Below are positions 3,135-49,025 of a stretch of DNA of 50,558 bases, one piece after another (the stretch's first letter is position 1; each line of letters starts with the position of its first letter). Position numbers and translations under genes: made by a program. The stretch lies in NCBI GenBank assembly GCA_041946635.1, contig JBHGAX010000001.1, positions 1 to 50,558 of the forward strand. The letters run 5' to 3'. The notes beneath the pieces were generated by a model, which did no database searches, was not told the origin of the DNA, and saw nothing but the letters and a program-made list of their open reading frames with translations. This DNA is from Candidatus Methylomirabilales bacterium. Its GTDB lineage: Bacteria; Methylomirabilota; Methylomirabilia; Methylomirabilales; 2-02-FULL-66-22.

Positions 3135-3284
3135 GCTCGTAACGCGTAACACGTCACCAAGAACAAAGCCCTACAGCTCGAGGCCTTCGTAGATCGGCGC
3201 GCCGTCCCTGAGCAGGTGCGCACGCTGCTCGGGGACCATGGTGAGGAGCAGCTGGATGATCTCCCGAGCGTTACGCGTTACGCC
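3135..3284. repeat. Inverted GTTACG-type repeat pair bracketing the lspA-rluD spacer
   Basis: Perfect 13-nt inverted repeat: CGTAACGCGTAAC (3138-3150) and GTTACGCGTTACG (3270-3282). The right arm contains the lspA TAA stop (3271-3273). Confidence 0.7.
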
Positions 3285-3753
3285 TTCCCTCCGCCCTCCA
3301 CTCCAATACCATATCCACCAGCATCAGCCCCACGCCCACGGAGATGGCGGAGTCGGCGACGTTGAAGGCGGGCCAGTGGAGGGTGTGGTAGTGGACATCC
3401 AGGAAGTCCACCACCATGCCGTAGCGCAGCCGGTCGATGAGGTTGCCGAGCGCGCCGCCCAGGATGAGCGCCAGCGCCAGCGAGGCCAGGCGCTTCTCCC
3501 GGAGGTAGCGGGAGCGATACACGAAGATCAGGATCACCGCGGCCAGCGAGATGAGGATGAAGAAGGGATTGCGCAGGCTGCCGGAGAGGCTGGCCAGGAA
3601 GCCGAAGGCGGCGCCGGGGTTGAACACGAAGACGATGTCGAAGAACCCCGGGATGACCGGGATGGCCTGCCCGAGCTGCAGGCTCCGCACGATCACTTCC
3701 TTGGTGACCTGGTCCAGCAGGACGACGGCGAACGCCGAGAGATAGAAAGTCAT
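3271..3753 (-). CDS. lspA: Lipoprotein signal peptidase (signal peptidase II)
   Basis: A 160-aa polytopic protein with LspA motifs FNPGAAFGFL and WPAFNVADSAISVG. It sits immediately downstream of ileS, the classic ileS-lspA linkage. Confidence 0.9.
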   Translation of the reverse strand: MTFYLSAFAVVLLDQVTKEVIVRSLQLGQAIPVIPGFFDIVFVFNPGAAFGFLASLSGSLRNPFFILISLAAVILIFVYRSRYLREKRLASLALALILGGALGNLIDRLRYGMVVDFLDVHYHTLHWPAFNVADSAISVGVGLMLVDMVLEWRAEGRRNA

Positions 3754-3764
3754 CGCGGACCACT

Positions 3765-3837
3765 GAACGCGTAACGCGTACCGCGTAACACGAACACGGG
3801 TGCTCCTTCCGAGTTACGTGTTACGAGTTACGCGTTG
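3765..3837. repeat. Heptad-repeat hairpin filling the ileS-lspA spacer
   Basis: The left arm (3765-3800) is built of CGCGTAA-type units, the loop is 3801-3810, and the right arm (3813-3837) reads gttacgt gttacga gttacgc gttg. About 28 imperfect bp can form. The ileS TAA stop (3828-3830) is inside the right arm. Confidence 0.75.
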
Positions 3838-6593
3838 CCCTGCAGCGCCCCCGCGCAGCGGGCGCAGACGTCGGGGTGGGCGGCCGAGGCGCCGATGTCC
3901 GTGCGGTAGTTCCAGCAGCGCGGGCACTTGGTGCCGCCGGCCCGCTCCACCCGCACCGCGACGCCCTCGCCGCTCGGGCGCCGGGCCACCTCGAGGCGCG
4001 AGACGATGGCGATGGTCTCCAGCTCCTCGCGTCGCGCGGCCAGGAAATCGTAGGCCTCCCCCGGGGCCTCCACCGTGACCGCCGCCTCCTGCGCGCTGCC
4101 GATCAGCTTGGCCTTGCGCGCGGCCTCCAGCTCGCGGAGGACGTCGTCCCGGACCGCCAGCAGCCGCTGCCAGTCCCGCGCCAGCGCCTCGTCCAGCCAT
4201 TCGGGCCGGACCCGCGGGAACTCGGTCAGGTGCACGCTGGCCGGCTTGTCCGGCATGGTCACGTAGCGCCAGACCTCCTCCGCGGTGAAGGACAGCACGG
4301 GCGCCATGAGCTTCACCAGGCTCACCAGGACCTCGTGCATGGCCGTCTGGGCCGAGCGCCGGATGGCTGCCCCGGGCGCCGAGGTGTAGACGCGGTCCTT
4401 CAGCACGTCCAGGTAGAACGCGCTCAGGTCCACGGCGCAGAAGTGGTGCAGGGCGTGGTAGAGCACGTGGAACTCATAGTCCTCGTAGGCCTGCCGCACC
4501 CGCTCGGTGAGCTCCTGCAGCCGGTGCAGGATGTAGCGGTCCAGGGCCAGCAGCTCGCCGGCCGGCACCGCGTCGCGCGCCGGGTCGAAGTCGTAGAGGT
4601 TCGCCAGGAGGTAGCGGCAGGTGTTCCGGATGCGCCGGTACCCGTCCGCCAGGCGCGTGAGGATCTCGTCCGAGAGCCGGATGTCGTCGCGGTAGTCCTC
4701 GGCCGCCACCCAGAGCCGCAGCACCTCGGCCCCGTACTTCCGGATCACCTCCTGCGGCGCGATGACGTTGCCCTGGGACTTGGACATCTTCCGCCCCTCG
4801 CCGTCCACCACGAAGCCGTGGGTGAGGACGGCGCGGTAGGGGGGCCCGCCCTGCACGCCCACCGCCGCCAGCAGCGAGGAGTGGAACCAGCCGCGGTGCT
4901 GGTCGCTGCCTTCCAGGTACATCTCCGCGGGCCAGTGCTGGTCGTCCCGGACGCGCAGCACGGCGGCCTGGCTCACCCCGGAGTCGAACCAGACGTCCAG
5001 GATGTCGGTCTCCTTCCGGAACTCGCTGCCGCCGCACTGCGGGCAGCGCGTGCCGGGCGGGAGCAGCTCGGCCGCGGGCCGGGCGAACCAGACGTCCGCG
5101 CCTTCCTGCTCCATGAGCCCCGCCACGTGCTCCACCAGGGACGCCTCGGCCAGCAGGCGCTGGCAGGCCGTGCAGTAGAAGACGGCGATGGGCACGCCCC
5201 AGGCCCGCTGGCGCGAGATGCACCAGTCCGGCCGGTTGGCGATCATACCGGAGATCCGCTCCTCGCCCCAGGCCGGGATCCAGCGCACCTGCCGGATGGC
5301 CTCCAGCGTGCGCGCGCGGAGGCCGTTCTTCTCCATGGAGATGAACCACTGGTTGGTGGCGCGGAACAGCACGGGCTGCTTGCACCGCCAGCAGTGCGGG
5401 TAGGCGTGCACGAACTCCGAGGCGTGCAGCAGCCGCCCGGCCGCCCGCAGGTGCTGGATGATGGCCCGGTTCGCCTCCCAGACGCGCATCCCCGCGAAGT
5501 GGGCCACCTCGGGCACGAACCGGCCGGTGTCGTCCACGGGGTTGTAGATGGGCAGGTTGTGCTTGATTCCCGTCTCGTAGTCGTCCGCCCCGTGCCCCGG
5601 CGCGGTGTGCACCAGGCCGGTGCCCTGGTCCATGGTGACGTACTCGGCCGGCAGGATGGGCGCCTCCCGGTCGATCCAGGGGTGTCGCGCCACGAGCCCC
5701 GACAGCCGCGAGCCCGGGACACGCGCGAGCACCTCGGCCTCGGTCCAGCCGCAGGCCCGAGCGGTCTGGTCCAGGAGCTTCGCGGCCACCAGGTAGGCCG
5801 CCCCGCCCGAGCGAACCACCGCGTACTCCTCGTCCGGGTGCACGGCGATGGCGAGGTTGGCGGGCAGGGTCCAGGGCGTGGTGGTCCAGATGACGGCCGA
5901 GACCGGCACGCCGCGCAGGCGCGCGTCCAGGGCCGCCGGGTCGGACTGCAGCGGAAACGCCACGTAGATGGAGGGCGAGGGGTCGTCCTGGTACTCCACC
6001 TCGGCCTCGGCCAGGGCCGTGCGGCAGCTGATGCACCAGTGGACCGGCTTCAGCCCGCGATAGACCGCGCCGGTGGCGAGGAACTTCCCCAGCTCCCGCA
6101 CGATGGTGGCCTCGTACGGGTAGTTCATGGTCAGGTAGGGCTCGCTCCAGTTGCCGAGCACCCCCAGGCGCTTGAACTCCTGCCGCTGGATGTCGATGAA
6201 CTTCTCGGCGTAGGCGCGGCACATGCGCCGCTTCTCCGGGATGGACGCCTGCCGCGCGCGCGCCCCCAGCTCCTTGTCCACCTGGTGCTCGATGGGCAGG
6301 CCGTGGCAGTCCCAGCCGGGCACGTACGGGGCGTCGAAGCCGAACATGGAGCGCGACTTCACGATCATGTCCTTCAGGATCTTGTTGAGCGCGTGGCCCA
6401 TGTGGATGTGGCCGTTGGCGTACGGCGGCCCATCGTGCAGGATCCACATCTCGCGCCCGGCGCGGGCCCGCCGGAGCTGGCCGTAGAGGTCCATGCGCTC
6501 CCACTCGGTCAGGAGCGCCGGCTCGCGCTCCGCCAGGTTGGCGCGCATGGGGAAGTCGGTCTTCGGCAGGTTCAGCGTGTTCTTGTAGTCCAT
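3828..6593 (-). CDS. ileS: Isoleucyl-tRNA synthetase
   Basis: A 921-aa ORF with the HIGH-type motif [16 protein letters not shown] ([10 protein letters not shown]), an editing-domain insertion and a C-terminal Zn-ribbon (CPRCWNY...CARC). Confidence 0.97.
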
Positions 6594-6722
6594 GCCCCGG
6601 CCCTCTAAATGACTGCAGCCATCGGGCGCCGGCGGTCAGCGTGGAACGCGTGCCCACTTTCGCTGAACGGCCGGACGCTGATGGCTGAGTGCGCCGTGTC
6701 GCGAATACCGCTCGAATGCGGA

Positions 6723-6751
6723 ACGCTATCAGGGAAAGCCAGCTATGTCAA
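6723..6751 (-). promoter_or_regulatory. Candidate sigma-70 promoter for ileS
   Basis: On the minus strand: TTGACA (6751-6746), a 17-nt spacer, then TAGCGT (6728-6723). This would leave a leader of about 120 nt before the ileS ATG at 6593. Confidence 0.4.
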
Positions 6752-6772
6752 TGAAATGGCCGGGTTCCGGCC
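6750..6772 (-). terminator. Candidate intrinsic terminator downstream of the EamA gene
   Basis: Minus-strand RNA reads GGCCGG-AAC-CCGGCC followed by AUUUCAUU. Confidence 0.4.
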
Positions 6773-6894
6773 TCGGCCCACTCCCGCTCCTCTGGCGAGG
6801 GTGGTGCGGGCGGGAGCATCCCGCCCGTTCCTGGCGCGGGCGCGCGTCGCGCCCGATGAAGCGCCCCCCACGGCCTGCCCGCGATGGCCGGGAG

Positions 6895-7776: not shown

Positions 7777-7932
7777 GTTCGCCCCGCTCCCGGTGAAGAC
7801 GCGAGTCATACCACGTCTCGGCCGCGGCGCAAAGCCACGCCTCATGGCTCGCAGCTCGTGGTCCTTGCCATGGGCCATGAGCTATCAGCCACGAGCCGCG
7901 AGCCGGTCGGCTCGCGTTCCGGCTCGCGGGCC

Positions 7933-7962
7933 TTGACACCCCTCGCGGCGCTTCAGTATAGT
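7933..7962 (+). promoter_or_regulatory. Candidate sigma-70 promoter for the aminotransferase-serA operon
   Basis: TTGACA (7933-7938), an 18-nt spacer, then TATAGT (7957-7962). This implies a leader of about 170 nt before the ATG at 8140. Confidence 0.5.
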
Positions 7963-8139
7963 CGCCGCGGTCGTGCCCGCCGAACCCGTGAGCCATCCCG
8001 GCCGGCCCCGCGTCGGGGCCTTCCGTCGGCTGCACCTCCGCCGGGCTTCCCCTTGGCCATCTGCAGTGCGCCGGTCCGGGGGGAGGCGTGCGCGCGGGCG
8101 CGGACGGATCGGGTTCCGCGGCACGCGGAGGGGGACCCC

Positions 8140-10868: not shown

Positions 10869-10878
10869 GACGAGCCCT

Positions 10879-10960
10879 GACGCGTAACACGTAACTGAGA
10901 ACCACCGGCTGCGAACTGTTGTTGTGTTACGAGTTACGCGTTACGCGTTACGCGAGTTTT
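10879..10960. repeat. Heptad-repeat hairpin after serA (terminator-like)
   Basis: The left arm is gacgcgtaacacgtaac (10879-10895). The right arm is gtgttacgagttacgcgttacgcgttacgcg (10924-10954), followed by agtttt. Same GTTACGN family as 3135-3837 and 33933-33988. Confidence 0.75.
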
Positions 10961-12381: not shown

Positions 12382-13686
<1,305 letters not shown>

Positions 13687-13796: not shown

Positions 13797-13872
13797 GACC
13801 CGGTAGCTCAACTGGCAGAGCATCGGCCTTTTAAGCCGAGGGTTCAGGGTTCGATTCCCTGCCGGGTCACCA
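13797..13872 (+). tRNA. tRNA-Lys (anticodon UUU)
   Basis: A 76-nt cloverleaf folded by hand: acceptor GACCCGG/CCGGGTC, D stem GCTC/GAGC, anticodon stem TCGGC/GCCGA with loop CTTTTAA, T arm CAGGG-TTCGATT-CCCTG, discriminator A and an encoded CCA. Confidence 0.93.
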
Positions 13873-13954
13873 TTTCTTCCCGGCAGTTTCACCCGGAGTC
13901 AGGCGCGCCGCGGCCGACCGTATGTGCGATGCCCGTCCACGTGTTTCCACCCGC

Positions 13955-13983
13955 TTGAATCTTTCCGTCCCGGATGGTATAAG
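13955..13983 (+). promoter_or_regulatory. Candidate sigma-70 promoter for the 14001-14820 two-gene module
   Basis: TTGAAT (13955-13960), a 17-nt spacer, then TATAAG (13978-13983). GGAG lies 6 nt before ATG 14001. Confidence 0.5.
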
Positions 13984-14000
13984 ACCTTCTGGAGTTCACC

Positions 14001-14207
14001 ATGGAACAAGACGGTATCCTCCAATTGAGTCGAGACGAAATCGTGGGTCGCCTTGAGCGTGGCGCTCGGCGCCGACTGCGTATGTCTGCCCGCGAACTCG
14101 TCGAAGCCTACCGCGCGGGGCGCCTGGAAGACCCGGGTGCAGTGGCGGATCTTCTCGCTCTCGCCAGTCTCCTCGTCGAGGCCGACCCCCTCTTTGTCCC
14201 TGCCTGA
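14001..14207 (+). CDS. Hypothetical 68-aa protein (helical, acidic C-terminus; antitoxin-like size and position)
   Basis: It has a good promoter and SD, and the composition looks like real protein (MEQDGILQLSRDEIVGRLERG...). I recognise no family. Confidence 0.55.
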   Translation: MEQDGILQLSRDEIVGRLERGARRRLRMSARELVEAYRAGRLEDPGAVADLLALASLLVEADPLFVPA

Positions 14208-14820
14208 GCGCACAGCGCGCCTCGCTGAAGCTCGCCGACTGACGGCCGCGTACCAAGCCGGGGGTCCCGCCGCAGCTCAGGCCTTTCGAGACCTGACTGG
14301 CCTCCTGCTGCGCCTGACTGTTCTCGCCCCCGAAGGTGGCGTGCGTTTCTCTTCCGGCCCTCGTGGGACCACCGATCTCGTGCTGGGTGGCTGGGCCGGT
14401 CCCGACGATCCCTTGCCACTTCGGGATGGCCGCTATCTTCGGCTGACGGTGCGGCTTTACGTCGCACCTGCTGCCGAACGCAACCGCCTAAAGGTGGCGC
14501 ACTCGAGCTACCAGTACCAACTCGACCGGGATGGGGATCACTGGGTGTTCCGATACGACTACCTGCGGATTCCGCCCGATCTGAACCCAGCGGCCCACGT
14601 GCAGGTTAACGGCAGCCTGACCGAAAACTGCCTGCCGCCCGCCAGACCACTCTCGCGGGTCCACTTCCCGACCGCGCGGGTATCCTTGGAGGCCGTTATA
14701 CGTCTCCTCGCCGATCAGTTCGGCACGCCGTGTGGCACCGAGCCCGAGGTATGGCGTCCGGTGCTCAGCGAGACGGAACAGGCATTCCTTCAAATCGCCC
14801 ACCATCCCCCTGGGGCTTGA
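14194..14820 (+). CDS. Hypothetical protein of about 208 aa; start uncertain (TTG 14194 or CTG 14200, overlapping the upstream stop)
   Basis: The frame of ORF 14053-14820 only looks protein-like after about 14200. The core SSYQYQLDRDGDHWVFRYDYLRIPPDLNPAAHVQVNG is loosely reminiscent of DUF6516/TumE-type toxins (YxY...RYDN...HHKH), but this is not verifiable here. Confidence 0.45.
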   Translation: MSLPERTARLAEARRLTAAYQAGGPAAAQAFRDLTGLLLRLTVLAPEGGVRFSSGPRGTTDLVLGGWAGPDDPLPLRDGRYLRLTVRLYVAPAAERNRLKVAHSSYQYQLDRDGDHWVFRYDYLRIPPDLNPAAHVQVNGSLTENCLPPARPLSRVHFPTARVSLEAVIRLLADQFGTPCGTEPEVWRPVLSETEQAFLQIAHHPPGA

Positions 14821-15028
14821 CCAACGGAGCCCCAGCCAGTTTTTCCATCGCAGCCCGCATGTGGTCCGGCGACAGGTGGGCGTACCGCTGGACCATGATT
14901 GCCGTCTTCCACCCGCCAGCCCGCTGGACCGTGTAGAGGTCCACGCCTGCCATTGCGAGCCGAGAGGCGAAGGTATGCCGGTTGTGCCGCGCGCGGCACA
15001 ACCGCCATCGTGCCGCGTCCCTGATCAT
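14765..15028 (-). pseudogene. Tyrosine-recombinase (phage-type integrase) C-terminal fragment
   Basis: It encodes only the catalytic tail HNRHTFASRLAMAGVDLYTVQRAGGWKTAIMVQRYAHLSPDH (HxxR ... W ... Y). No N-terminal or core-binding part lies upstream. Confidence 0.7.
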
Positions 15029-15162
15029 GCCGACTGTTTCCGATTAGGTTCGTTGTGCCCCACGTTTGGCGCAGCTCTGCACTCTTTGCTCCCCACTTGA
15101 AGTTGGCATAATCCGGAGGTCTCCTCGGGCCCTGGCAATGGCGCCAGGAAAGGAGGAGACCG

Positions 15163-16404
15163 ATGCCGGACGATGCGTTCGACCGCCTGCTCACCGACCC
15201 CCGCGTGCGAGACAACCCGCTGAGCACGCACCTCGCGTCGTTTGCGAGTTCACTGCAAGAGGCGGGCTACGCCCAGGCGACCGTGAAGGCGAAGCTCGGG
15301 CTGCTGGCCGAGTTCGGGCACTGGCTGGGCCGCCGCAGGGGCGCGGTCCGGGACCTCGAGGAGCGACGCGTCGCGCGGTTCGTCACGCACCGCGAGCGCA
15401 AGGGGCACCTCCACCGCGGGGCCCGAGAAACGCTCCGGCAGTTCCTGGATCATCTCCGCACGCGGGCCGTCATTCCCGGTCCGCCGCCGGTGCGGGACGC
15501 GGCGCCGTGGGCCACGCTGCTCGCGCGGTACGAAAGGCACCTGGGAACCGAGCGCGGGCTGGTCACGGCCACAGTCGTCAACTACCTGCCGTACATCCGC
15601 ACGTTTCTCGCTGAACGCTTCCGCGCGCGGCCGTTCCGGGTGCGTGCCGTGAACGCGGCCGACCTGGCCGGGTTCGTCCTGCGGCACGCTCCCGCCATGA
15701 GCCCCCGCCGCGCGCAGCTGATGACAACCGCTCTGCGCTCGTTCCTCCGGTTCCTGTTTCGCGAGGGCGCCCTGCCCACCAACTTGGCGGAGGCCGTGCC
15801 CACGGTCGCCGACTGGCGTCTGTCGACCATCCCCAAGTACCTGCGCCCGGAGGAAGTCGCCCGGGTGCTGGAAAGTTGCGACCGGTACACCGCGACCGGC
15901 CGCCGCGACCACGCGATCCTGCTCCTCCTCGCGCGCCTGGGCCTCCGGGCGGGGGAGGTGGTGGCCCTCCGGCTCGACGACCTCGACTGGCGCGCCGGCG
16001 AGCTCCTCGTGCGCGGGAAGGGCTCAGTCCATGACCGGCTGCCCTTGCCGGTGGAGGTCGGCGCGGCGCTCGCGGCCTACCTCCGGGATCGGCCCGGCTG
16101 CTCCACGCGACGGGTGCTCCTGCGCAGGAAGGCACCGCGCCGAGAGTTTGCGGGCCCCTCGACGGTGAGCACGATCGTGCGCCGTGCGCTGGAGCGGGCG
16201 GGGCTCCAGCCGGCGCTGAAGGGAGCCCACCTGCTGCGGCACAGTCTCGCGACCACGCTGCTGCGCGGGGGCGCCACCCTGGGAGAAATCGGTGAGGTGC
16301 TCCGCCATCGCCTACCCAGCACCACGGAACTGTACGCCAAGGTCGACGTCGCCGGTCTGCGGGCCCTGGCGCACCCCTGGCCGGAGGCGGGAGGTGGACA
16401 ATGA
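15163..16404 (+). CDS. Tyrosine recombinase, first gene of the trio (RitA-like), apparently intact
   Basis: A 413-aa ORF with AGGAGGAG SD. Catalytic residues are recognisable: ARLGLRAGEV (Arg), HLLRHSLAT (HxxR), LRHRLPSTTELYAKV (His...Tyr). Confidence 0.85.
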   Translation: MPDDAFDRLLTDPRVRDNPLSTHLASFASSLQEAGYAQATVKAKLGLLAEFGHWLGRRRGAVRDLEERRVARFVTHRERKGHLHRGARETLRQFLDHLRTRAVIPGPPPVRDAAPWATLLARYERHLGTERGLVTATVVNYLPYIRTFLAERFRARPFRVRAVNAADLAGFVLRHAPAMSPRRAQLMTTALRSFLRFLFREGALPTNLAEAVPTVADWRLSTIPKYLRPEEVARVLESCDRYTATGRRDHAILLLLARLGLRAGEVVALRLDDLDWRAGELLVRGKGSVHDRLPLPVEVGAALAAYLRDRPGCSTRRVLLRRKAPRREFAGPSTVSTIVRRALERAGLQPALKGAHLLRHSLATTLLRGGATLGEIGEVLRHRLPSTTELYAKVDVAGLRALAHPWPEAGGGQ

Positions 16405-17341
16405 ACCCCCTGGAGCGGGCCTTGGCCGACTACCTGGCGACCCGCCGCGCGCTCGGGTTTACGTTGCGGGAGACGAGTGGCTGCTTGCGCAATTTTGTTG
16501 CTTTCCTCCAGACCGCCGGCGCTGCCCACATCACGACGGACTTGGCGCTGCGCTGGGCGACCCAGCCCGCCACCGCGCAGCCGGCCACCTGGACGTGGCG
16601 GTTAAGCATGGTCCGGGGCTTCGCCCGCTGGCAGAGCGCGCGGGACCCGCGGACCGAGGTCCCGCCGGCCGGGCTCCTGCCCCACCGGTACCACCGCAAG
16701 CCTCCCTACTTCTACAGCGACCGGGAGATCGCGCGGCTCTTGCACCGCGCCGCCCAGCTGCCCTCGCCCCGCGGGCTCCGCGCGCACACGTACGCCACGC
16801 TGTTCGGGCTGCTCACGGTGACGGGCATGCGCGTCAGCGAAGCCCTCGGCCTGGACCGGGCCGAGGTGGATCTCGCGAACGCCATCCTGACCATCCGGCG
16901 CACGAAGTTCGGCAAGTCGCGGGTGGTCCCGCTGCATCCGTCGACGGGCGCCGCGCTCCAGGCCTACGCCGACCGGCGCGACCACGTCGTGCCGGCGCCA
17001 TTGAGCCCGCCTTCTTCCTCGCGGAGCGCGGCACCCGGGTGACGGAGTGGATGGCGCGCTACACCTTCGCCAAGCTCTCGCAAGCCCTCGGGCTCCGCGC
17101 GCGCGCGACCGGCCACGGCCGCGGGCCTCGGCTGCATGACCTACGACACCGATTCGCCGCCCGCACGCTGCTCGAGTGGTACCAGGCGGGCCACGCCGTG
17201 GACCGCGAGCTCCCCAAGCTGGCCACCTACCTCGGACACGTCCACATCAATGACACCTACTGGTACCTGGACGCCGTACCGGAACTGCTCCAACTGGCCA
17301 CCGCGCGGCTGCTGGAGCCGGGCAAGGAGGTGCGCCCGTGA
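16401..17341 (+). pseudogene. Tyrosine recombinase, second gene of the trio (RitB-like), frameshifted
   Basis: The N-terminal 200 aa are in the frame of ORF 16401-17042. The catalytic C-terminus (HDLRHRFAARTL ... LGHVHINDTYWY) continues in the frame of ORF 16292-17341. The frame switch is near 16985-17005. Confidence 0.75.
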
Positions 17342-21545: not shown

Positions 21546-21619
21546 ACCGGCACTCCGGCACCCGGGCACTCGCACGCTGGGACGATCTTTCCAGAGTGCC
21601 GGAGTGCCCGGGTGCCGGA
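21546..21619. repeat. CGGCAC-type repeat hairpin between convergent genes
   Basis: The left arm is ccggcactccggcacccgggcactc and the right arm is gagtgccggagtgcccgggtgccgg. The outer 7 bp are perfect and about 25 imperfect bp form overall. The motif cggcactccggc recurs at 33997-34008. Confidence 0.7.
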
Positions 21620-22662: not shown

Positions 22663-23328
22663 TCACGCCGGGGTCCCCGCCGGCTCGATGCCCAGCCCGC
22701 GGAGCGCCGACCGGAGCTGCGCCGGCGACTCGTACTGAACGGCCCGCATCCCGAGGCGCGCCGCGCCCTCCACGTTCGGCAGCCGGTCGTCGATGAAGAG
22801 GCAGTGCTCGGCCGGAAGCCCCGAGCGCCGCAGCGCCTCCTGGAAGATGCGCGGCTGCGGCTTCATCGCGCCGACGCGGTAAGACAGGATGCACTCGCTG
22901 AAGAGCGCCAGCGCCGGGATGCGGGCGCGCACGTGGTCGAAGTGAATGGCGTTCGTGTCCGACAGCAGGTAGAGCGGGTACCGGCCGTGCAGGCCCCGCA
23001 GCAGGGCCACGGTCTCCGGGATCTCCGTGAAGATGTCGCCGTAGAGCTCCCGGAAGTCCGCGTACGGCACCTCGGCCTTCAGGGCGCCCATGACGGCCCG
23101 GTGATACTCGGCGCCGGTGACCTGGCCGCTCTCGAACGCGGCCTGCAGGGGATTCCCGAAGGCCGCGGCCAGGATGGCGTCCGCCTCCCGGCCGCAGCGG
23201 CTCGCCAGCCGGTCGCAGAAGATCCGATAGTCGAACCGGCAGACGACGCCGCCGAAGTCGAACACCAGCAGGCGGATGTGCGGTTCCGCTCCAGCTTGTC
23301 TCGGCTCTCGGCACTCGGCACTCGGCAC
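22663..23328 (-). CDS. HAD-superfamily hydrolase (subfamily IA-like); start uncertain
   Basis: Motif I LLVFDFGGVV, and a later LLSDTN ... FIDD. The ORF-track start is a GTG inside the heptad array at 23301-23335, and the true start may be a few codons downstream. Confidence 0.8.
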   Translation of the reverse strand: MPSAECREPRQAGAEPHIRLLVFDFGGVVCRFDYRIFCDRLASRCGREADAILAAAFGNPLQAAFESGQVTGAEYHRAVMGALKAEVPYADFRELYGDIFTEIPETVALLRGLHGRYPLYLLSDTNAIHFDHVRARIPALALFSECILSYRVGAMKPQPRIFQEALRRSGLPAEHCLFIDDRLPNVEGAARLGMRAVQYESPAQLRSALRGLGIEPAGTPA

Positions 23329-23335
23329 TCGATCC
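23301..23335. repeat. Direct heptad array (TCGGCNC x4-5) between the peroxiredoxin and HAD genes
   Basis: The array reads tcggctc tcggcac tcggcac tcggcac tcgatcc. It starts right after the peroxiredoxin stop (TAG, 23335-23337 on the minus strand). Confidence 0.8.
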
Positions 23336-24198: not shown

Positions 24199-24236
24199 CG
24201 CCTCCCGCCCTCGTCCCGGCGCGAGGGCGGGAGGCG
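24199..24236 (+). terminator. Hairpin after the SWIB-like gene
   Basis: A perfect 15-bp stem, cgcctcccgccctcg / cgagggcgggaggcg, with an 8-nt loop. There is no clear U-tract. Confidence 0.5.
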
Positions 24237-25418: not shown

Positions 25419-25497
25419 GCACCGCCAGGACGCCCAGGCCGCCAGGAAGAAAGGCGGTCTTGGCGAACCTCGGCGCTCTTGGCGCCCTCGGCGGTGC
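25419..25497. repeat. CGCCAGG/CTTGGCG-type repeat hairpin
   Basis: The outer stem is gcaccgcc / ggcggtgc. The arms are made of cgccagga-like and ggcg(n)cttgg-like units. It shares an identical 19-mer with 29863-29881 and a 14-mer with 35177-35190. Confidence 0.75.
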
Positions 25498-26411: not shown

Positions 26412-26524
26412 CGTCTCCTCCTTGCACCGCACCTTGCACCACGAAGGTCATGAAGGGGTTCGGAAGGACCCGGGTGGTGGCGAGGAAGCAGACCACATCC
26501 CGGCGGCGGGGTCAAGCCGAATGG

Positions 26525-29820: not shown

Positions 29821-29893
29821 CGAAGCGCCAAGAGCGCCAGGTGTCGGGGAAACCCCTTCGACCCTCGGCGCTCTTGGCGCCTTGGCGGTTCAG
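29821..29893. repeat. CGCCAAG/CTTGGCG-type repeat hairpin between dctP and the GRE gene
   Basis: A perfect 14-bp stem, gcgccaagagcgcc (29825-29838) / ggcgctcttggcgc (29867-29880), with an inner GGGG-AAA-CCCC tip. The 3' tail cttggcggttcag is identical to 35317-35329. Confidence 0.8.
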
Positions 29894-30970: not shown

Positions 30971-31126
30971 GGTTCCGGGTTCGAGGTTCGAGGTTCGAGG
31001 TTGCCCTGAACCGGTCGCCTGTCTCTTTGCGCTCCAGGTCGAGACTCGAGTACGTATCCCCCGCAACGCCGGGGGCCTACCCAGGTGCCGGGTCCCTTGA
31101 ACGTCGAACCTTGAACCCGGAACCCC
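30971..31126. repeat. GGTTCGA heptad inverted repeat in the 243-bp dctM-dctP spacer
   Basis: The left arm is ggttccgggttcgaggttcgaggttcgaggttgccctgaacc (30971-31012). The right arm is cccttgaacgtcgaaccttgaacccggaacccc (31094-31126). The arms are largely complementary and separated by 81 nt. Confidence 0.75.
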
Positions 31127-33932: not shown

Positions 33933-33988
33933 GGAACGCGTAACAAGAACTTGGGCCGCGCTTGCCGAAGGTTACGTGTTACGTGTTC
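33933..33988. repeat. GTTACG-type heptad hairpin between the ACAD and SDR genes
   Basis: The left arm is ggaacgcgtaacaagaac and the right arm is gttacgtgttacgtgttc. Same family as 3765-3837 and 10879-10960. Confidence 0.7.
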
Positions 33989-35151: not shown

Positions 35152-35172
35152 GGGGACACCTCCAGGCAGTAC

Positions 35173-35329
35173 GTGAACCGCCAGGACGCCACGGACGCCC
35201 ACACCCGAAAAGGCGCAGGGGCGTCGGGGCGCGGCGGCGAAAGAACGATGCAGAAGGCGGGCGCTGTTTCGCCTCGGCGCCTGTTCGCCTCTGCGCCTCT
35301 GCGATGATCCGAGCGTCTTGGCGGTTCAG
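35173..35329. repeat. Nested long imperfect palindrome filling the MaoC-ACAD spacer
   Basis: The outer arms are gtgaaccgccaggacgc (35173-35189) and gcgtcttggcggttcag (35313-35329). The inner arms are aggcgcaggggcgtcggggcgcggcggcgaaag and gtttcgcctcggcgcctgttcgcctctgcgcct. The right end supplies the MaoC TGA stop (35326-35328). Confidence 0.75.
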
Positions 35330-35775
35330 GTTCTCTCTCTCCGCCAGACCATCAGGCCGTGCTCGCCCTCCTGCACCACCTCGCCCCGCTGGTTCAGCAT
35401 GGTCACGTACTCGACGACGATCCCGCGATCCGGCTTCTTGGTCTCGCGCTTGCTCTGGATGCGGACGCGCACCCGGATGGTGTCGCCCATCCGGATGGGG
35501 CCCGTGAACTTGTAGTTCCAGTAGAGCGAGGCCATGTAGCGGGCGCCCGCGAACTCCGGGATGCGGAACTTCAGCCCCTCGGAGACGGCGAGCCCCAGCA
35601 AGCCGTGCGCGATCCGGGTCTGGTAGGGCGTCCCCTTGCAGTACTCCTCGTCGCAGTGCACGGGGCTCCAGTCCCCCGAGAGCGCCGCGAAGCTCACGAT
35701 GTCCGCCTCCGTGATCGTCCGGGCGGGGGACTCGTACTCCTCGCCCACCTGCATGTCCTCGTAGTAGCGCTCCAT
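35326..35775 (-). CDS. MaoC-like (R)-specific enoyl-CoA hydratase/dehydratase
   Basis: A 149-aa hot-dog fold protein with SGDWSPVHCDEEY and IAHGLL. Confidence 0.88.
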   Translation of the reverse strand: MERYYEDMQVGEEYESPARTITEADIVSFAALSGDWSPVHCDEEYCKGTPYQTRIAHGLLGLAVSEGLKFRIPEFAGARYMASLYWNYKFTGPIRMGDTIRVRVRIQSKRETKKPDRGIVVEYVTMLNQRGEVVQEGEHGLMVWRRERT

Positions 35776-39328: not shown

Positions 39329-39388
39329 CCGCCAGTCCTCTCGCAGCGCGGCGGGGCCCCGGCAGGGACCGGGGCCCCGCGCGGCCGC

Positions 39389-42135: not shown

Positions 42136-42198
42136 GCGGCCTCCGGCGGGGAGCGCCGGCGAGGCTGAAGTGATCATGCGTTTCCACCCAGGCTGCTT

Positions 42199-42279
42199 GC
42201 AGGTTTCAGATGGCCGATTGCCGATTGCAGACCCGCGCCGACCGGCGAAGATCTGAAATCGTCAAATCTGCAATCTGCC
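42199..42279. repeat. CCGATTG/CAGATTT-type heptad hairpin between the two ADH genes
   Basis: The left arm is ...cagatggccgattgccgattgcagac and the right arm is gaagatctgaaatcgtcaaatctgcaatctgcc. About 25 imperfect bp can form. Confidence 0.65.
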
Positions 42280-42289
42280 GTGCCATGGC

Positions 42290-43695: not shown

Positions 43696-43770
43696 CGGCC
43701 CATCCCGGCGCCGGGGCTCGATCCTGGACCCGGGCCTTCAGACTGGCGGCGCTGGACGGGCGTGTGCATG

Positions 43771-43800
43771 TGCGTAATCTGCGTCATCTGCGGATGATCC
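43771..43800. repeat. Direct 9-mer repeats (TGCGTAATC-type)
   Basis: The array reads tgcgtaatc tgcgtcatc tgcggatgatcc. A near-identical array is at 48994-49025. Confidence 0.7.
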
Positions 43801-43858
43801 ATCTCCGGTCTTTAGGGCCAGAGATAGTCGGAGTAGACGGTGAGGCGAAGGGGGTCCG

Positions 43859-44218
43859 TCATCCTGCGCGCGACCCCCGGCACGTCGGGCAGGGGCAGAG
43901 CTGTCGGAGGTAGCTGTAGGAGTAGATGCCCGCGTCGTGCGCGTCGCTCCACACGAAGTTGACGGCGTAGCGCCCCACGGGTTTCACGTCGGTCGCCTGG
44001 ACCTCCCCCGCCCGCACCACCGGGCCGGAGAGCACGGTGAGGCTTGCGGCGGGCGCGGGCTTGCTCCGCTGGTCCGCGCAGAGCGCGCAGGGACACTCCC
44101 GGCGGAGGAGGTCAAAACCGTAGCGGCTCTCGTGGCCGTCGCCCCAGCGCACGACCATCTCGCGGCGCTCCCGGCTCACCGTGATGTCCGTCGGCGCGGT
44201 GGGATCCGCGGTGCTCAT
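43859..44218 (-). CDS. DUF971 protein (gamma-butyrobetaine hydroxylase N-terminal-like, Cys-rich)
   Basis: Start preferred at ATG 44218 (GGAGA SD). Contains DGHESRYGFDLLRRECPCALC ... YLRQLCPCPTC. Confidence 0.75.
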   Translation of the reverse strand: MSTADPTAPTDITVSRERREMVVRWGDGHESRYGFDLLRRECPCALCADQRSKPAPAASLTVLSGPVVRAGEVQATDVKPVGRYAVNFVWSDAHDAGIYSYSYLRQLCPCPTCRGSRAG

Positions 44219-44269
44219 CGCATCTCCATGCACACGTCGTGAACCGCCTGCGTGTCCACGGCACGCATC

Positions 44270-45385: not shown

Positions 45386-45594
45386 GGAGTGTGGGCTGAT
45401 CCCCCGGCAGGGCGAGTGGCGGCCGGCTGCGGCAACGGCTCGTGGGCCCGAAAGTACTGGAGGGCCCCCTCGATGTAGGCGGCCTGCAGCCGCTTGCCCA
45501 TGGCGGCGACCGCCGTCGCCAGGTCGGCGGGGGGCGCGCTGGGCATCTCCCTCACGGCATGGCGGGTCCGGGGAAGCTCGAGCACGGCGTCCAT
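45382..45594 (-). CDS. Hypothetical 70-aa ORF overlapping the helicase start (ATGA)
   Basis: It begins 24 nt downstream of a good promoter with an AAAGGGGG SD. No family recognised, and it may be only a leader. Confidence 0.3.
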   Translation of the reverse strand: MDAVLELPRTRHAVREMPSAPPADLATAVAAMGKRLQAAYIEGALQYFRAHEPLPQPAATRPAGGSAHTP

Positions 45595-45617
45595 GGCTGC
45601 CCCCTTTCTGCTGGTAT

Positions 45618-45647
45618 CTTTTACCATACGTGTGTTTGGTATTTCAA
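45618..45647 (-). promoter_or_regulatory. Candidate sigma-70 promoter (extended -10) for the helicase operon
   Basis: Minus strand: TTGAAA (45647-45642), an 18-nt spacer ending in TGG, then TAAAAG (45623-45618). It lies in a conspicuously AT-rich 60-bp patch. Confidence 0.5.
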
Positions 45648-45649
45648 GG

Positions 45650-45676
45650 CAAAAAATAGGGCAGAGCTGCCTGCCC
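45650..45676 (-). terminator. Canonical intrinsic terminator after the AOR/MoaD genes
   Basis: Minus-strand RNA reads GGGCAG-GCAGCU-CUGCCC followed by UAUUUUUUG. Confidence 0.7.
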
Positions 45677-45695
45677 TGCCCCCTGTTCACCACGC

Positions 45696-45747
45696 TGAAC
45701 GTCCCGCGTTCCCCGTCGAACGTTCAACGCGGAACGCGGGACGTTCA
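45696..45747. repeat. Perfect 17-bp inverted repeat just downstream of the MoaD-like gene
   Basis: tgaacgtcccgcgttcc (45696-45712) pairs with ggaacgcgggacgttca (45731-45747). The loop contains the palindrome gaacgttc. Confidence 0.8.
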
Positions 45748-45755
45748 ACCTCCTC

Positions 45756-45989
45756 TCACCCGCCCGCCAGCGCCGGGATCAGGTGCACCTCGTCCCCGTC
45801 CTGGAGCGCCTGCGCGGGAGCCGCCTGCCGGCCGTTCACCACGAAGAGCGTCCACTCGGGGTCTGCTGCGACCTCCAGCTTCGCCAGGAGATCCGCGAGG
45901 GTGCTGGCCGGGGTGAGCGCCACCTCCAGCCGTCGCAGCCGCCCGGCGGGGGTCTCCCGCTGGAGGGTCGTGTGCAGGTGCACGGTCAC
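45756..45989 (-). CDS. MoaD/ThiS-family ubiquitin-fold protein
   Basis: A 77-aa ORF ending ...DGDEVHLIPALAGG (C-terminal Gly-Gly). The GTG start overlaps the AOR stop (GTGA, 45986-45989). Confidence 0.75.
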   Translation of the reverse strand: MTVHLHTTLQRETPAGRLRRLEVALTPASTLADLLAKLEVAADPEWTLFVVNGRQAAPAQALQDGDEVHLIPALAGG

Positions 45990-47701
45990 GACCAATTGAA
46001 GATCCCGTCCAGGTCCTCGTCCGCCACGTCGAAGACCGCGTTGTGCGGCGGCAGCGGCTCGAGGCGCATGTACTCCGGCATGCGGTCGTGCACCGACGTG
46101 AATCCGGCGCGCCGGTTGAACTCGCGCTCCATCTTCAGCGTCTCGCGCCCGAGGACCTGCAGGATGTCCGCGGGCACGTCCCAGCCGTAGCGCGCCTTCA
46201 GGATGTCCGGGATCACGGTCGGATCCACCATGAAGCCGAACCCGGCGAAGATGCAGGCGCCCAGCGAGTCGAAACCGGCCATGTTGATCTGGGCGCCGCG
46301 CGAGACGGCCGCCTGCACCTTCGGATCCAGGTGATCGACCTTGGCGCGCACGGTGTTGCCGGCCGTGTGGTCCGCGCCCTGGGGCGAGGTCGAGTAGGTG
46401 ACGCCCAGCCCCTTGATGGCGCGCGGCTCGTAGGCCGACATGGCCTGCCCCTTCACGCACGGCACGCGGAGCACGCCGAAGACCCGGCCGGTCACCGCCG
46501 CGCCGTGCCCCAGCACCCGGCCCAGCGGCGTGCCCTGCCGGATCTCGTGCATGAGCCCCAGGAAGCCCTTCCCGTCCCCGAACTTCACGAGACCGGCGTC
46601 CGCCGCGACGCCGAGCGCCGCACCCATGTCGATGGTGTCCACGCCCAGGTCGCTCGCCTCCCAGTTCAGCTTCGCGATGGCGTCCAGGTCGTCCAGCCCC
46701 AGGTTCGAGCCCATCAGCCCGACCGTCTCGTACTCGAGGGGCGTGACCAGCGTCTTGCCGTCCGGGCCCGCGTACACGTTGGAGCACTGGATCACGCAGC
46801 CCGCCATGCAGGCGTGCGTCGTCTCGCCCTCGCCGCCCCGCGCCAGGATGAGGTCGCGGAGCGCCTCGCCGCTGATCTTCTCGGCGCCTTCGAAGCGCCC
46901 GCTGGAGAAGCTGCGGGTGGGCAGGCCGCCGAAGCCGTTGGTCGTCATGACCATGGCATCGGTCCCGTAATCCTGGTAGACCTTGGTCTGGGGGTGCTCC
47001 AGCGTGTTGGTGGTGAACCGCTTCTGCGCGGCCCTGAAGGCCGCCGGATCGGCCAGCGAGGGCTTCTTCCCGCCGGCGTCGTCGAAGACGATGGCCTTGA
47101 GGTGCTTGGCCCCCATGACGGCGCCCAGCCCGCCGCGCGAGGCGATGCGCGAGGGCACGCCTTCCTTGTCGAGGTTCTGGATGCCGGCCGCGGACAGGCG
47201 CATCTCGCCGGCCGGGCCGATGAGGGCGATCGCCACCTTCTCGCCATACCGCTTCCGCAGCCGCTCGGCCGCCTCGTGGACGCCCAGGCCGCACAGGTCG
47301 CCGCCCGCGTCGAAGCGCCCGCCGTCCTTCGTCAGGTAGAGGACCCACCAGGGCGCCGCCGCGCCCGCCGGGTGCCCTTCCAGGACCAGGGCCTTGATGC
47401 CCATGCTGGTCATGTGCAGGCCGGTCGTGCCGCCGGCGTTCGCCTCCTTGATGCCGCCGGTCATGGGGCTCTTCCCGCCGACGGAGATGCGGTCGCAGCT
47501 CGACAGCATGTGCCCCACCAGCAGGCCCGGGGCGAAGACGAGCTTGTTGAAGGGGCCCAGGGGCTCGCAGGTGGGGGGCACCTCGTCCAGGAGGATGCGG
47601 GCGCTGAGGCCGCGGCCGCCCAGACGCTCCCAGGCGGGTGGAGCAGGCTCGATAGTCACGGTGCGCTTGCCGACGTCCACGCGAAACAAGTTCATGGCCA
47701 T
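45986..47701 (-). CDS. Aldehyde:ferredoxin oxidoreductase family (tungsto-/molybdopterin enzyme)
   Basis: A 571-aa ORF with an AOR N-terminal domain (GGRGLSARILLDEV ... VGGKSPMTGGIKEANAGG) and the Cys cluster HACMAGCVIQC. Confidence 0.9.
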   Translation of the reverse strand: MAMNLFRVDVGKRTVTIEPAPPAWERLGGRGLSARILLDEVPPTCEPLGPFNKLVFAPGLLVGHMLSSCDRISVGGKSPMTGGIKEANAGGTTGLHMTSMGIKALVLEGHPAGAAAPWWVLYLTKDGGRFDAGGDLCGLGVHEAAERLRKRYGEKVAIALIGPAGEMRLSAAGIQNLDKEGVPSRIASRGGLGAVMGAKHLKAIVFDDAGGKKPSLADPAAFRAAQKRFTTNTLEHPQTKVYQDYGTDAMVMTTNGFGGLPTRSFSSGRFEGAEKISGEALRDLILARGGEGETTHACMAGCVIQCSNVYAGPDGKTLVTPLEYETVGLMGSNLGLDDLDAIAKLNWEASDLGVDTIDMGAALGVAADAGLVKFGDGKGFLGLMHEIRQGTPLGRVLGHGAAVTGRVFGVLRVPCVKGQAMSAYEPRAIKGLGVTYSTSPQGADHTAGNTVRAKVDHLDPKVQAAVSRGAQINMAGFDSLGACIFAGFGFMVDPTVIPDILKARYGWDVPADILQVLGRETLKMEREFNRRAGFTSVHDRMPEYMRLEPLPPHNAVFDVADEDLDGIFNWS

Positions 47702-47856
47702 CCTGGCTCCTCCTCCGGAGACCCCTCCGCCTTCCGTTCCGGGTCCAGCTCGCGGGCAGCCGCTAAGTTTCTACGGTGCACCGGCGAGAGTCCAGCGGAA
47801 ATCCGCAAACCCCCGCCCTTTGCGAGCCTCCCCGGAGGATTGGCCCGAAGAGCGGC

Positions 47857-47937
47857 TCACCACGAAGGACACGGAGCGCACGAAGGGGGACCCGAACCTT
47901 CGCGTGTCCTTCGTGTCCTTCGTGCTCTTCGTGGTGA
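47857..47937. repeat. CCTTCGTG-type repeat hairpin between the ROK and AOR genes
   Basis: The left arm is tcaccacgaaggacacggagcgcacgaaggggg and the right arm is ccttcgcgtgtccttcgtgtccttcgtgctcttcgtggtga. The outer 11 bp are perfect. The motif caccacgaagg recurs at 26437-26447. Confidence 0.75.
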
Positions 47938-47945
47938 AATGCTCT

Positions 47946-48923
47946 TCACCCCGCCCGGCGGTGGAGGAAGAGGGCGGCGCCGCCCTGCACCCCCGATTCC
48001 TTGGTGAAGGAGGAGCGCCGTATGGTCGTGCTCTCGTACGCGGCCTCGAAGGCGTAGAGGCGCGCCCAGCGCCGGATGGGCCCCAGCAGGACCTCCCCGG
48101 CCTCCAGGACGCCGCCCGCCAGGAGGATCAGCTCGGGGTTGCAGAGGTTGATGAGCGTGGCCACCCCCACGCCCAGGGCGCGCGCCGCGCGGTGGGCGAC
48201 CGTGAGGCCGATCGGGTCCCCCCGGCGGGCGGCGGCGAGCACCGCCGGGCAGTCCAGCCGCTCGAAGTCGCCCCCGCACAGCTCCGACAGGATGGGCGTG
48301 GCGTTCCTCCGGCAGAGGGCCCGGGCCTGCTGCGCGATATCCGGGCCGGAGGCGTAGGCCTTGATGCAGCCGCGGCTCCCGCACAAGCACTCGGGCCCCT
48401 CGGGGTCCACCGTCACGTGGCCGATCTCGCCGGCGTAGCCGCGCGCCCCGCGGACGAGCTGGCCGTTCAGGATGAGAGCGCCGCCCACCCCGGTGCCGGC
48501 CGCGATCATGGCCACGTGCCGGCGGCCGCGCGCCTGGCCGAAGATCCATTCGCCGAGGAGGAGGGCGTTCACGTCGTTGTCCGCAACCACCGGGAGACCC
48601 GTGCGCTCGTGGATCACCTGCACGATCTTCACGTCGCGCAGCTCGGGCAGATTCTGAACGTCCGCCCCGATGGCGCCCGTGGCCTCGTCCACCACCCCCG
48701 GGACGCCGAGGCCCACGCCCGCCAGCGGCCGGCCCAGCCGCTCGGCGTCCTCGCGGAGCCACCCCAGCACCTCCAGGACGTTGTCGAGAAGCCGCTCGCC
48801 CCGGCCCAGCCGGCCGGTCGCCACGCTGCGGCAGGACAGGACCCGCCCCGTGGGCTCCACCAGCCCCACCGCCAGGCGCGTTCCGCCCAGGTCCACCCCG
48901 AGGATCAGGCTCTCCGGGTCCAC
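47946..48923 (-). CDS. ROK-family sugar kinase (glucokinase-like, no HTH)
   Basis: ILGVDLGGTRLAVG, the ROK Zn motif CLCGSRGC and GAGTGVGGA. Confidence 0.88.
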   Translation of the reverse strand: MDPESLILGVDLGGTRLAVGLVEPTGRVLSCRSVATGRLGRGERLLDNVLEVLGWLREDAERLGRPLAGVGLGVPGVVDEATGAIGADVQNLPELRDVKIVQVIHERTGLPVVADNDVNALLLGEWIFGQARGRRHVAMIAAGTGVGGALILNGQLVRGARGYAGEIGHVTVDPEGPECLCGSRGCIKAYASGPDIAQQARALCRRNATPILSELCGGDFERLDCPAVLAAARRGDPIGLTVAHRAARALGVGVATLINLCNPELILLAGGVLEAGEVLLGPIRRWARLYAFEAAYESTTIRRSSFTKESGVQGGAALFLHRRAG

Positions 48924-48993
48924 TCTCCGTGTCCCTCGCCCGTCACGTCACACGCCCTCGCCCCGGCCCTCTCGGAGGGAGAAGCGTCTGTCC

Positions 48994-49025
48994 GAATCTG
49001 CGTAATCTGCGTAATCTGCGGATCC
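48994..49025. repeat. Direct 9-mer repeats (AATCTGCGT x3)
   Basis: The array reads gaatctgcg taatctgcg taatctgcg gatcc. It shares tgcgtaatctgcgt..atctgcggat with 43771-43797. Confidence 0.75.

Follow-up and report, generated by a model that had tools for sequence, protein, structure and literature searches.

Tandem arrays of heptanucleotide units in non-coding DNA have been described in several bacterial groups. In Xanthomonas campestris and X. axonopodis, inverted arrays of the unit GGGAATC form 70–75 convergent pairs per genome; almost all of these arrays are intergenic, about four units are typical, most are transcribed, the same spacers are occupied in the two species with variable length and sequence, and polymerase slippage was invoked (PMC4692102). 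Arrays of GGGGAYT are found in Nostoc (Rehm et al. 2015, PMC4692102), and further heptamer repeats were reported from cyanobacteria (STRR-type; TTTTGAA in Nostoc) and from Beggiatoaceae (TAACTGA) (PMC4679880; bioRxiv 10.1101/2022.06.06.494920), where one Beggiatoaceae genome holds 169 direct sets and 1 inverted set (PMC4679880). Here, we describe elements in a 50,558-nucleotide stretch (the window) of contig JBHGAX010000001.1 from Candidatus Methylomirabilales bacterium (assembly GCA_041946635.1), i.e., intergenic hairpins whose arms are tandem arrays of short units. These elements are real and far above chance, and their architecture is a trait of one clade of Methylomirabilota.

Among described systems, the elements come closest to the inverted Xanthomonas arrays of GGGAATC, and closer to these than to anything new in kind. 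The original prediction, made from the sequence of the window, held that the short-period structure could not be matched to a described family, which was too strong, since inverted pairs of tandem heptamers are known from that genus. The likeness lies in intergenic tandem 7-nt units, many of them in convergent pairs able to form stem-loops or cruciforms. However, the Xanthomonas arrays use one G-rich unit with G-quadruplex potential, whereas dozens of units of 7–10 nt are found here, none of those in the clade with a G-tract, together with several families per genome, replacement of families at orthologous spacers and evidence for copying between loci, all in a different phylum. With regard to long-unit simple-sequence repeats as a class, tandem units, an intergenic excess, convergent pairs and variation of unit number and sequence at the same spacer were all found; a single dominant G-rich unit was not, a feature specific to Xanthomonas and Nostoc rather than to the wider class. 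The cyanobacterial and Beggiatoaceae heptamers are likewise intergenic, often next to start or stop codons, patchy and lineage-specific in distribution, and carry stop codons in their units, with three copies closing all three frames. In contrast to the elements of the window, they are essentially direct, one or a few units dominate each genome, and the hairpin is not a defining feature. A literature search returned no report of such elements in Rokubacteria or Methylomirabilota.

The 16 loci listed in the original prediction were read, and both strands were folded with RNAfold against dinucleotide shuffles (Table 1). Twelve of them, referred to by their listed starts (3135, 3765, 10879, 21546, 25419, 29821, 30971, 33933, 35173, 42199, 45696 and 47857), are hairpins with z-scores of −2 to −9 and stem energies of −37 to −100 kcal/mol. 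Their arms consist of 2–5 tandem units of 7–9 nt, often unequal in number between the two arms, with stems of up to 30 bp and loops of 2 to about 120 nt. Three other loci (23301, 43771 and 48994), predicted to be direct repeats only, are indeed solo arms that do not fold on themselves (z between −1.8 and +1.6), and the remaining one, 26417, is weak. The individual arms are not self-complementary; an exception among the relatives is given by the AACGTT-type units in L019. When at least 9 matched bp and no more than 1 mismatch are required, the elements pair in 2–5 registers whose offsets (0/7/14/21/28, 0/8/24 or 0/9/18/27) are multiples of the unit length, in agreement with the predicted pairing in several registers; only one register is available to the window's plain GC-rich hairpins.

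The frequency of the arrays was also compared with shuffled sequence, as the original prediction had proposed. Tandem Repeats Finder (TRF) detected 20 arrays of period 7–9 with at least 2.3 copies (2.3–4.6 across periods 7, 8 and 9) in 15 of the 39 window spacers, versus 0.62 ± 0.78 arrays, and never more than 4, in 100 dinucleotide shuffles of the spacers. Arrays are about ten times denser in spacers (20 in 8.3 kb) than in coding DNA (10 in 41.9 kb). The gene model behind these figures was derived from codon usage, with approximate gene starts, and spacers of at least 25 nt were counted. By this count, the elements occupy 16 of 39 spacers, about 40%, and not nearly every spacer as had been claimed. 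Their predicted lower GC content holds on average (0.50–0.73 versus 0.715 for coding DNA; the window as a whole is 71% GC) but not for families B and G, which at 0.68–0.73 do not differ from the genome. Spacers without periodic elements contain ordinary hairpins of 87–93% GC or nothing. These plain hairpins form a second class, with a single register and without a U-tract (2099–2128, 24199–24236 and 39351–39380), and are probably the ordinary 3′-end structures of this genome.

Table 1. Periodic elements of the window, with units, pairing, folding and gene context. Energies (dG) are in kcal/mol; two values separated by a slash refer to the two strands; IR, inverted-repeat score.
Position	Family and unit	Arms and loop	Fold	Registers (offsets)	Context
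3135–3284	A, GCGTAAC / GTTACGC	~3138–3155 and ~3266–3283; loop ~110 nt; 13-bp perfect inverted repeat	z −2.4/−1.8	4 (0/7/14/27)	fills lspA–rluD-like spacer; lspA stop TAA (3271–3273) in right arm
3765–3837	A	3766–3792 and 3810–3836	dG −37/−35, z −5.7/−3.0	5 (0/7/14/21/28)	fills ileS–lspA spacer; ileS stop TAA (3828–3830) in right arm
7846–7925	GAGCCGC / GGCTCGC, GC-rich	inverted arrays; TRF array 7887–7905	IR 13.5		divergent spacer; 17th locus, absent from the earlier list
10879–10960	A	left arm 10880–10896; right array 10926–10954, 4.1 units	z −3.8	4 (0/7/14/21)	serA/hisS; TTTT after the element
21546–21619	G, 8-nt unit CCGGCACT / GAGTGCCG	hairpin	dG −62.6, z −8.8	0/8/24	between convergent genes, in probable island
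23300–23335	G, CTCGGCA × 4.6	solo array without inverted partner	no significant fold
25419–25497	B, CGCCAGG / CTTGGCG, 8–9 nt	hairpin; gapped pairing	dG −54, z −5.1
26417–26470	CACCTTGCAC × 2, then GAAGG motifs	doubtful locus; hairpin not significant	z +1.5/−0.3	0
29821–29893	B	hairpin	dG −51, z −6.3		3′ of dctP
30971–31126	E, GGTTCGA / TYGAACC	hairpin; loop ~90 nt	dG −89, z −7.0, IR 22.5	0/7/14/21	between dctM and dctP
33933–33988	A	hairpin	z −2.5	0/7	between acyl-CoA dehydrogenase gene and short-chain dehydrogenase/reductase (SDR) gene
35168–35334	B	outer arms 35168–35189 and 35313–35334; loop holds a second, nested periodic hairpin with CGCCTCTG array (35270–35303)	dG −100, z −5.8		MaoC-gene stop TGA (35326–35328) in outer arm
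42199–42279	C-like, GATTGCC ... AATCTGC	hairpin	z −2.2/−3.6	4
43767–43800	C, CATCTGCGT × 2.9	solo arm
45696–45747	F, GAACGT-based	near-perfect hairpin	z −7.0/−8.5, IR 20
47857–47937	D, 9-nt unit CACGAAGGA / TCCTTCGTG	hairpin	dG −54, z −5.8	0/9/18/27
48995–49025	C, AATCTGCGT × 2.9, perfect	solo arm

The distribution of the elements was studied in DctM loci of related genomes and in 80 further loci from an IleS scan of metagenomes (comparison loci are numbered with the prefix L), to all of which TRF and an inverted-partner search were applied. The closest genomes, with 83–90% amino acid identity in DctM, are metagenome-assembled genomes (MAGs) labelled NC10, Methylomirabilia or Methylomirabilota, which are syntenic with the window over about 24–43 kb; L001, a Logan contig, is 100% identical to the window and hence of no use as a second strain. 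An origin from Myxococcus, initially guessed on the basis of GC content, was rejected in view of these nearest genomes. Arrays of period 7/8 occur at 3.8 per 10 kb in the window (2.4 of them with an inverted partner), at 4.0 (1.8) in loci whose IleS is 74–78% identical and at 2.7 (1.5) at 63–65% identity, but only at 0.55 (0.1) at 54–59% identity and at 0.27 (0) in outgroups. This drop from 2.7 to 0.55 marks the architecture as a trait of one clade, delimited by an IleS identity of at least 63%, and not of more distant relatives or outgroups. Dozens of independent projects and assemblers yielded contigs with the same architecture. Among the 114 distinct arrays of the clade, 43 have an inverted partner and 71 do not, and a non-adjacent direct partner was found for only 5. 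One relative, L032, carries three periodic hairpins within 1.5 kb (3440–4950): one directly follows a promoter-like TTGAGG...TAGGGT in the 5′ untranslated region (UTR) of an EamA-type transporter gene, a second lies 3′ of this gene, and the third is in the ileS 5′UTR. The longest array seen, two blocks of CAATGAC with about 11 copies in all, lies at 2865–2946 of L005.

The elements of the window fall into seven unit families, of which A (four loci), B (three), C (three; CAGATTnnn / AATCTGCGT) and G (two; CGGCACTC) are dispersed over several loci within 50 kb and D, E and F occur once each. The strand of the unit that forms the 5′ arm, i.e., the polarity, is constant within each family. Across the clade loci (about 0.5 Mb), at least 85 distinct non-coding units were counted, including 39 heptamers, 28 octamers and 17 nonamers. 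No motif is common to these 85 units beyond tetramers containing AA/TT, which are enriched 2- to 6-fold, an AA/TT step beside a GC-rich core being over-represented. Several apparent regularities were considered and rejected: GAAC/GTTC or TGAAC as a common end motif shows an enrichment of just 2.3-fold and lacks generality; stop codons in every 5′ arm are a rule that holds for families A and F and fails for C and E; and the likeness of GGTTCGA to a tRNA T-loop was treated as coincidence.

Some copies at different loci resemble each other beyond their units. The right arms of the family-B elements at 25419 and 29821 are identical at 34 of 39 positions, including bases beyond the repeats, and the family-A elements at 3765 and 10879 have 19 nt in common with unit variants in the same order. 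Between genomes, the family-C termini AACC[GA]CAGAT...ATCTG[CT]GGTT are kept at non-orthologous spacers. The variant order and flanks common to copies at different loci show that the elements are also copied between spacers. Family A, with its four window loci, was seen in none of the relatives' loci examined. Loci of the same family are also clustered along the window (11.1 kb versus 17.7 kb by permutation, p ~0.02), with A at 3–11 kb, G at 21–23 kb, B at 25–35 kb and C at 42–49 kb, which points to local spread or else to recombined segments forming a mosaic.

The original prediction had likened the elements to repetitive extragenic palindromes (REPs) and bacterial interspersed mosaic elements (BIMEs). 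This likeness holds for their niche, i.e., non-coding DNA, including the interior of operons and the overlap with gene ends, and for their dispersed families, but the elements are not classical REPs. REPs, BIMEs and REP doublets forming hairpins (REPINs) are also abundant dispersed families of intergenic palindromes, found in operons and at gene ends, whose inverted doublets yield long hairpins, for which roles in mRNA stabilisation or termination were proposed and which lack target-site duplications (PMC3333891, PMC3733652). Each REP is, however, an imperfect palindrome of 20–40 nt with a GTAG or CGTC tag, mobilised by a REP-associated tyrosine transposase (RAYT, of the Y1 type) whose gene commonly has its REPs on either flank, and the unit diversity found here is far greater. 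No common GTAG or CGTC tag was found at the aligned ends of 12 elements: the GTAG beside 21546 is the stop-codon context of two convergent genes, and CGTC occurs only inside family F. No Y1/RAYT transposase was found among the ~50 open reading frames (ORFs) of the window, whose sole recombinases are two tyrosine integrases next to tRNA-Lys. The elements further resemble transposable elements of the miniature inverted-repeat type (MITEs) in their size of 50–250 bp, terminal inverted repeats, variable interior, intergenic location, nested copies and presence or absence between relatives. In contrast to MITEs, the arms have an internal periodicity and vary by complete units, some arrays seem to have been seeded locally, no flanking direct repeat that would indicate a target-site duplication was found at the 12 aligned elements or the family-C copies, and neither a parent autonomous transposon with matching ends nor a transposase between distant inverted arms was seen in the ~0.5 Mb of clade loci. 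A search for genes bracketed by distant inverted arms found housekeeping genes only (lspA or an acyl-CoA dehydrogenase gene). An analogy with integron attC sites (RYYYAAC...GTTRRRY) was dismissed on account of the housekeeping nature and conserved synteny of the genes and of the opposite polarity of family E.

At orthologous spacers, the elements turn over rapidly. At the spacers 25419, 33933 and 35173, the window's families B, A and B give way to family C in L002 and L004, and the spacers at 29821, 30971 and 42199 contain plain hairpins or nothing in these relatives. In the ileS–lspA spacer, a periodic element is present in about 19 of 30 distinct relatives, with at least six unit types (GCGTAAC, GAACGTT, TAGCCGT, GTTCGGnC, CCAATGA and GGTTCAT), and the others have a short spacer or a plain hairpin. 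Downstream of lspA, L039 and L031 have an empty spacer, L028, at 94% identity to L039, has an AAACGTG hairpin there, and the hairpin of L032, L033, L034 and L038 is of family C with a 150-nt loop. Presence and absence of elements differ between contigs that are 92–95% identical. Changes within elements were resolved in closely related pairs: in L033 and L038, at 95.6% identity, a 5′UTR element differs by a single 8-nt unit, and L044 (5898–6030) and L045 (5565–5700), 95% identical, have the same arms in the ileS–lspA spacer around unrelated loops of 46–48 nt, showing that the centre of this hairpin was replaced. A candidate pair of filled and empty sites, L024 (6431–6581) and L025 (4412), 99.4% identical, was discarded, as it is a 150-nt spacer indel that is not periodic. 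Some arrays start within the final codons of the gene upstream and look like its ancestral end (e.g., L027 group, CAATGA; L044 group, GGTTCATAG; L028 compared with L039), suggesting that seeding in situ or microhomology-guided insertion also occurs.

Pairing at orthologous spacers, which the original prediction had proposed to compare, recurs as a potential at several of them, although the unit sequences differ. In four family-C orthologues, CAGAT/ATCTG has changed to CAAAT/ATTTG in both arms, all three units co-varying, and 92.5% of cells are paired versus 27–41% with the partner slid. This covariation in the four orthologues has the right direction but is not significant, as 165 of 500 shuffles reach the same value. 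The element common to L002, L003 and L004 has two compensatory pairs and several decay mismatches. A copy in L003 carries an insertion within an arm.

With regard to genes, arrays occur in 47 of 163 co-directional, 7 of 14 convergent and 5 of 12 divergent spacers. Those of co-directional spacers are a median of 14 nt away from the upstream stop, which 10 of the 47 overlap, versus 60 nt from the next start. Several arrays have a promoter-like site on one side and the ribosome-binding site on the other, which places them in 5′UTRs. The predicted donation of stop codons was confirmed for ileS, lspA and the MaoC gene, all three stops lying within arms. LspA (3271–3315) and IleS (3828–3872) both end in Asn-Ala-stop, encoded by AAC-GCG-TAA of the family-A unit; the repeat has thus written the C-termini of two essential proteins.

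The elements resemble intrinsic terminators, including the U-tract-less ones of high-GC genomes, as stable stem-loops just past a stop codon, some of them between convergent genes. However, they lack a U-tract, as had been noted for most of them (TTTT follows only 1 of the 12 hairpins, that at 10879), have longer stems, are less GC-rich than the plain hairpins of the window and occur also in 5′UTRs and within operons. The window contains 14 U-tract terminator-like sites versus about 11.6 expected, which is chance level, and among the elements a terminator consensus scan matched just a fragment of 25419. Directly 3′ of the family-F hairpin, at 45658–45682 on the minus strand, a 10-bp stem followed by ATTTTTT forms a canonical terminator, one of the few stem-plus-T-tract sites of the window. 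The missing U-tracts, this separate terminator and the location of elements in 5′UTRs and divergent spacers argue that the elements are not canonical terminators. In spacers with periodic hairpins, the sense strand folds better than the antisense strand no more often than the reverse (8 versus 9, n = 17), whereas other co-directional spacers show a sense-strand advantage (67 versus 53, p = 0.002), which suggests that the elements are not shaped for sense RNA. No element matched any Rfam family, tRNA-Lys being the only hit at gathering score in the window.

The genes around the elements are ordinary chromosomal ones: uvrB, a cold-shock gene, a rluD-like gene, lspA, ileS, serA, hisS and purA, together with genes for a PFL-like enzyme and its activase, a TRAP transporter, acyl-CoA metabolism, an ABC transporter, dehydrogenases and a DEAD-box helicase. 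A tRNA-Lys gene (13797–13872) is followed by the two tyrosine-integrase ORFs (15163–16404 and 16401–17042), and synteny with relatives returns only at about 22.7–24.3 kb; the stretch from 13797–17042 out to about 24 kb is probably an integrated island, and the GC-rich family-G units are restricted to it within the window. The genes for a radical-SAM activase and a PFL-like glycyl-radical enzyme, present in the window, L002 and L004, are missing from L003 (12403–12667, compared with 26.4–29.9 kb of the window) in otherwise conserved synteny. Beside the additional element at 7846–7925, whose GAGCCGC unit is also found at 19105 of L002, lies the best sigma-70-like promoter match of the window (7933–7962, plus strand; TTGACA-18-TATAGT, 11/12), directly past the element in the same divergent spacer. 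A 301-nt spacer upstream of ileS (6594–6894) is strongly structured, lacks periodic elements and may represent a regulatory or leader RNA; no Rfam family was found within it at gathering score.

The reading that we favour, to which we give about an even chance of being right, is that the elements are selfish or mutational, lineage-specific palindromic minisatellites, i.e., inverted pairs of tandem arrays of 7–10-nt units in non-coding DNA. Each arm behaves as a long-unit simple-sequence repeat that gains and loses whole units, as between L033 and L038, and replication slippage may drive the growth of the arrays. Because the arms are periodic, a hairpin would still pair after a unit change, in another register, and would thus be mutationally robust. 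Whole elements or arms are copied into other, often nearby, spacers, as the copies of families A, B and C show, giving rise to genome-specific families, and fast loss and replacement leave the orthologous spacers of relatives with other families or with none. Elements are tolerated outside reading frames only, with an arm that reaches the 3′ end of a gene supplying its last codons and stop, as for lspA and ileS. Complementarity of the arms could be maintained either by selection on the stem or by hairpin-templated correction. Once transcribed, the elements would form long stem-loops in 5′UTRs, between cistrons and at 3′ ends, which probably act as barriers or processing sites affecting mRNA stability and not as canonical terminators, an effect that we regard as a by-product and not as the reason why the elements exist. 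Several points weigh against this reading. Slippage accounts for tandem arrays but not for 38% of them being inverted pairs, and the reading names no mechanism for the copying between loci. The comparison covers genome fragments and not whole genomes, and so yields no census of copy number or transposases. The co-variation of both arms in all three units of the family-C orthologues, together with the nearness of arrays to the upstream stop, fits a selected RNA or DNA structure, the recurrence of an element in the ileS–lspA spacer of about 19 of 30 relatives could mean that the hairpin is selected there, and the strand-asymmetry comparison includes only 17 cases.

Selection on RNA is the substance of one alternative, which we consider unlikely: the elements would serve as attenuators or terminators lacking a U-tract, as processing sites for RNase III, or as exonuclease barriers setting the relative expression levels of adjacent cistrons, and the periodic arms merely a side effect of stem growth. 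Hairpins at the same spacers of relatives despite differing sequence, the G–C to A–U changes compensated in all three units of the family-C orthologues with their 92.5% of paired cells, the two compensatory pairs of the L002/L003/L004 element, the position near the upstream stop, the long and very stable stems (−37 to −100 kcal/mol) and the chance-level number of U-tract terminators, which suggests that something else may define 3′ ends, are all consistent with it. However, the sense-strand advantage seen in other spacers is missing, elements come and go between contigs 92–95% identical and decay by mismatches in orthologous copies, they occur also in 5′UTRs and divergent spacers, element F needs a separate terminator, the four-sequence covariation is matched by 165 of 500 shuffles, and 71 of 114 arrays have no inverted partner. 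A second alternative, non-autonomous mobile elements of the REPIN or MITE type that are moved in trans, e.g., by a RAYT/Y1 transposase for which the units serve as repeated recognition sites, is equally doubtful. It would explain the termini and variant order conserved at non-orthologous loci and between genomes, the genome-specific abundance of families, their constant polarity, nested or composite copies (35173; a copy in L003 with an arm insertion), identical arms around unrelated loops and gene ends replaced by element sequence, but the searches found no transposase in the window or between inverted arms at the loci examined, no target-site duplications and no general GTAG/CGTC tag. Moreover, 85 units in ~0.5 Mb are far more families than any known RAYT set would serve, some arrays look seeded by local stop-codon sequence, and solo arms are common.

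Binding sites for a protein, DNA- or single-stranded-RNA-binding, that recognises one unit, e.g., a cold-shock-type protein or a regulator, would account for the regular 7–9 nt spacing, for the AA/TT step enriched next to a GC-rich core and for the arrays that follow a promoter-like site and precede the ribosome-binding site, and similar proposals were made for the cyanobacterial and Beggiatoaceae heptamers (PMC4679880; bioRxiv 10.1101/2022.06.06.494920). This is quite improbable, as the 85 units have no common motif (the best 4-mers are only 2–6 fold enriched), the families differ among close relatives at the same spacer, and the sites would be hidden within a duplex by the inverted pairing. 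An origin by chance or as an assembly artefact has a negligible probability: the window and its relatives are metagenome assemblies, but 20 arrays stand against 0.6 in shuffles, the architecture recurs in dozens of independent projects and assemblers, and the elements lie between intact genes to which they supply in-frame stop codons. Tentatively, and with a low probability, the palindromic minisatellite could even propagate itself, its arms being kept complementary by intrastrand hairpin-templated copying, its centre being a hotspot of replacement and nearby spacers being seeded through a lineage-specific enzyme or repair pathway distinct from RAYT/REP and MITE transposition. A secondary possibility is that the elements of this clade, with their long stem and stops in all frames, have replaced U-tract terminators as insulators of gene boundaries.

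Heptamer-class repeats are over-represented in several phyla, where their origin and function are unexplained, and this clade is a rich natural experiment on them, with dozens of unit families, frequent inverted pairing, measurable change of units, loops and families at fixed gene boundaries, and protein C-termini written by the repeat. Such elements will confuse the calling of gene ends, terminator prediction and short-read assembly in MAGs of this kind. For the host lineage, uncultured Methylomirabilota of soil and sediment, the material could reveal what gives rise to inverted arrays, slippage plus template switching or a dedicated enzyme, and whether multi-register stem-loops replace canonical terminators in high-GC genomes that lack U-tracts.

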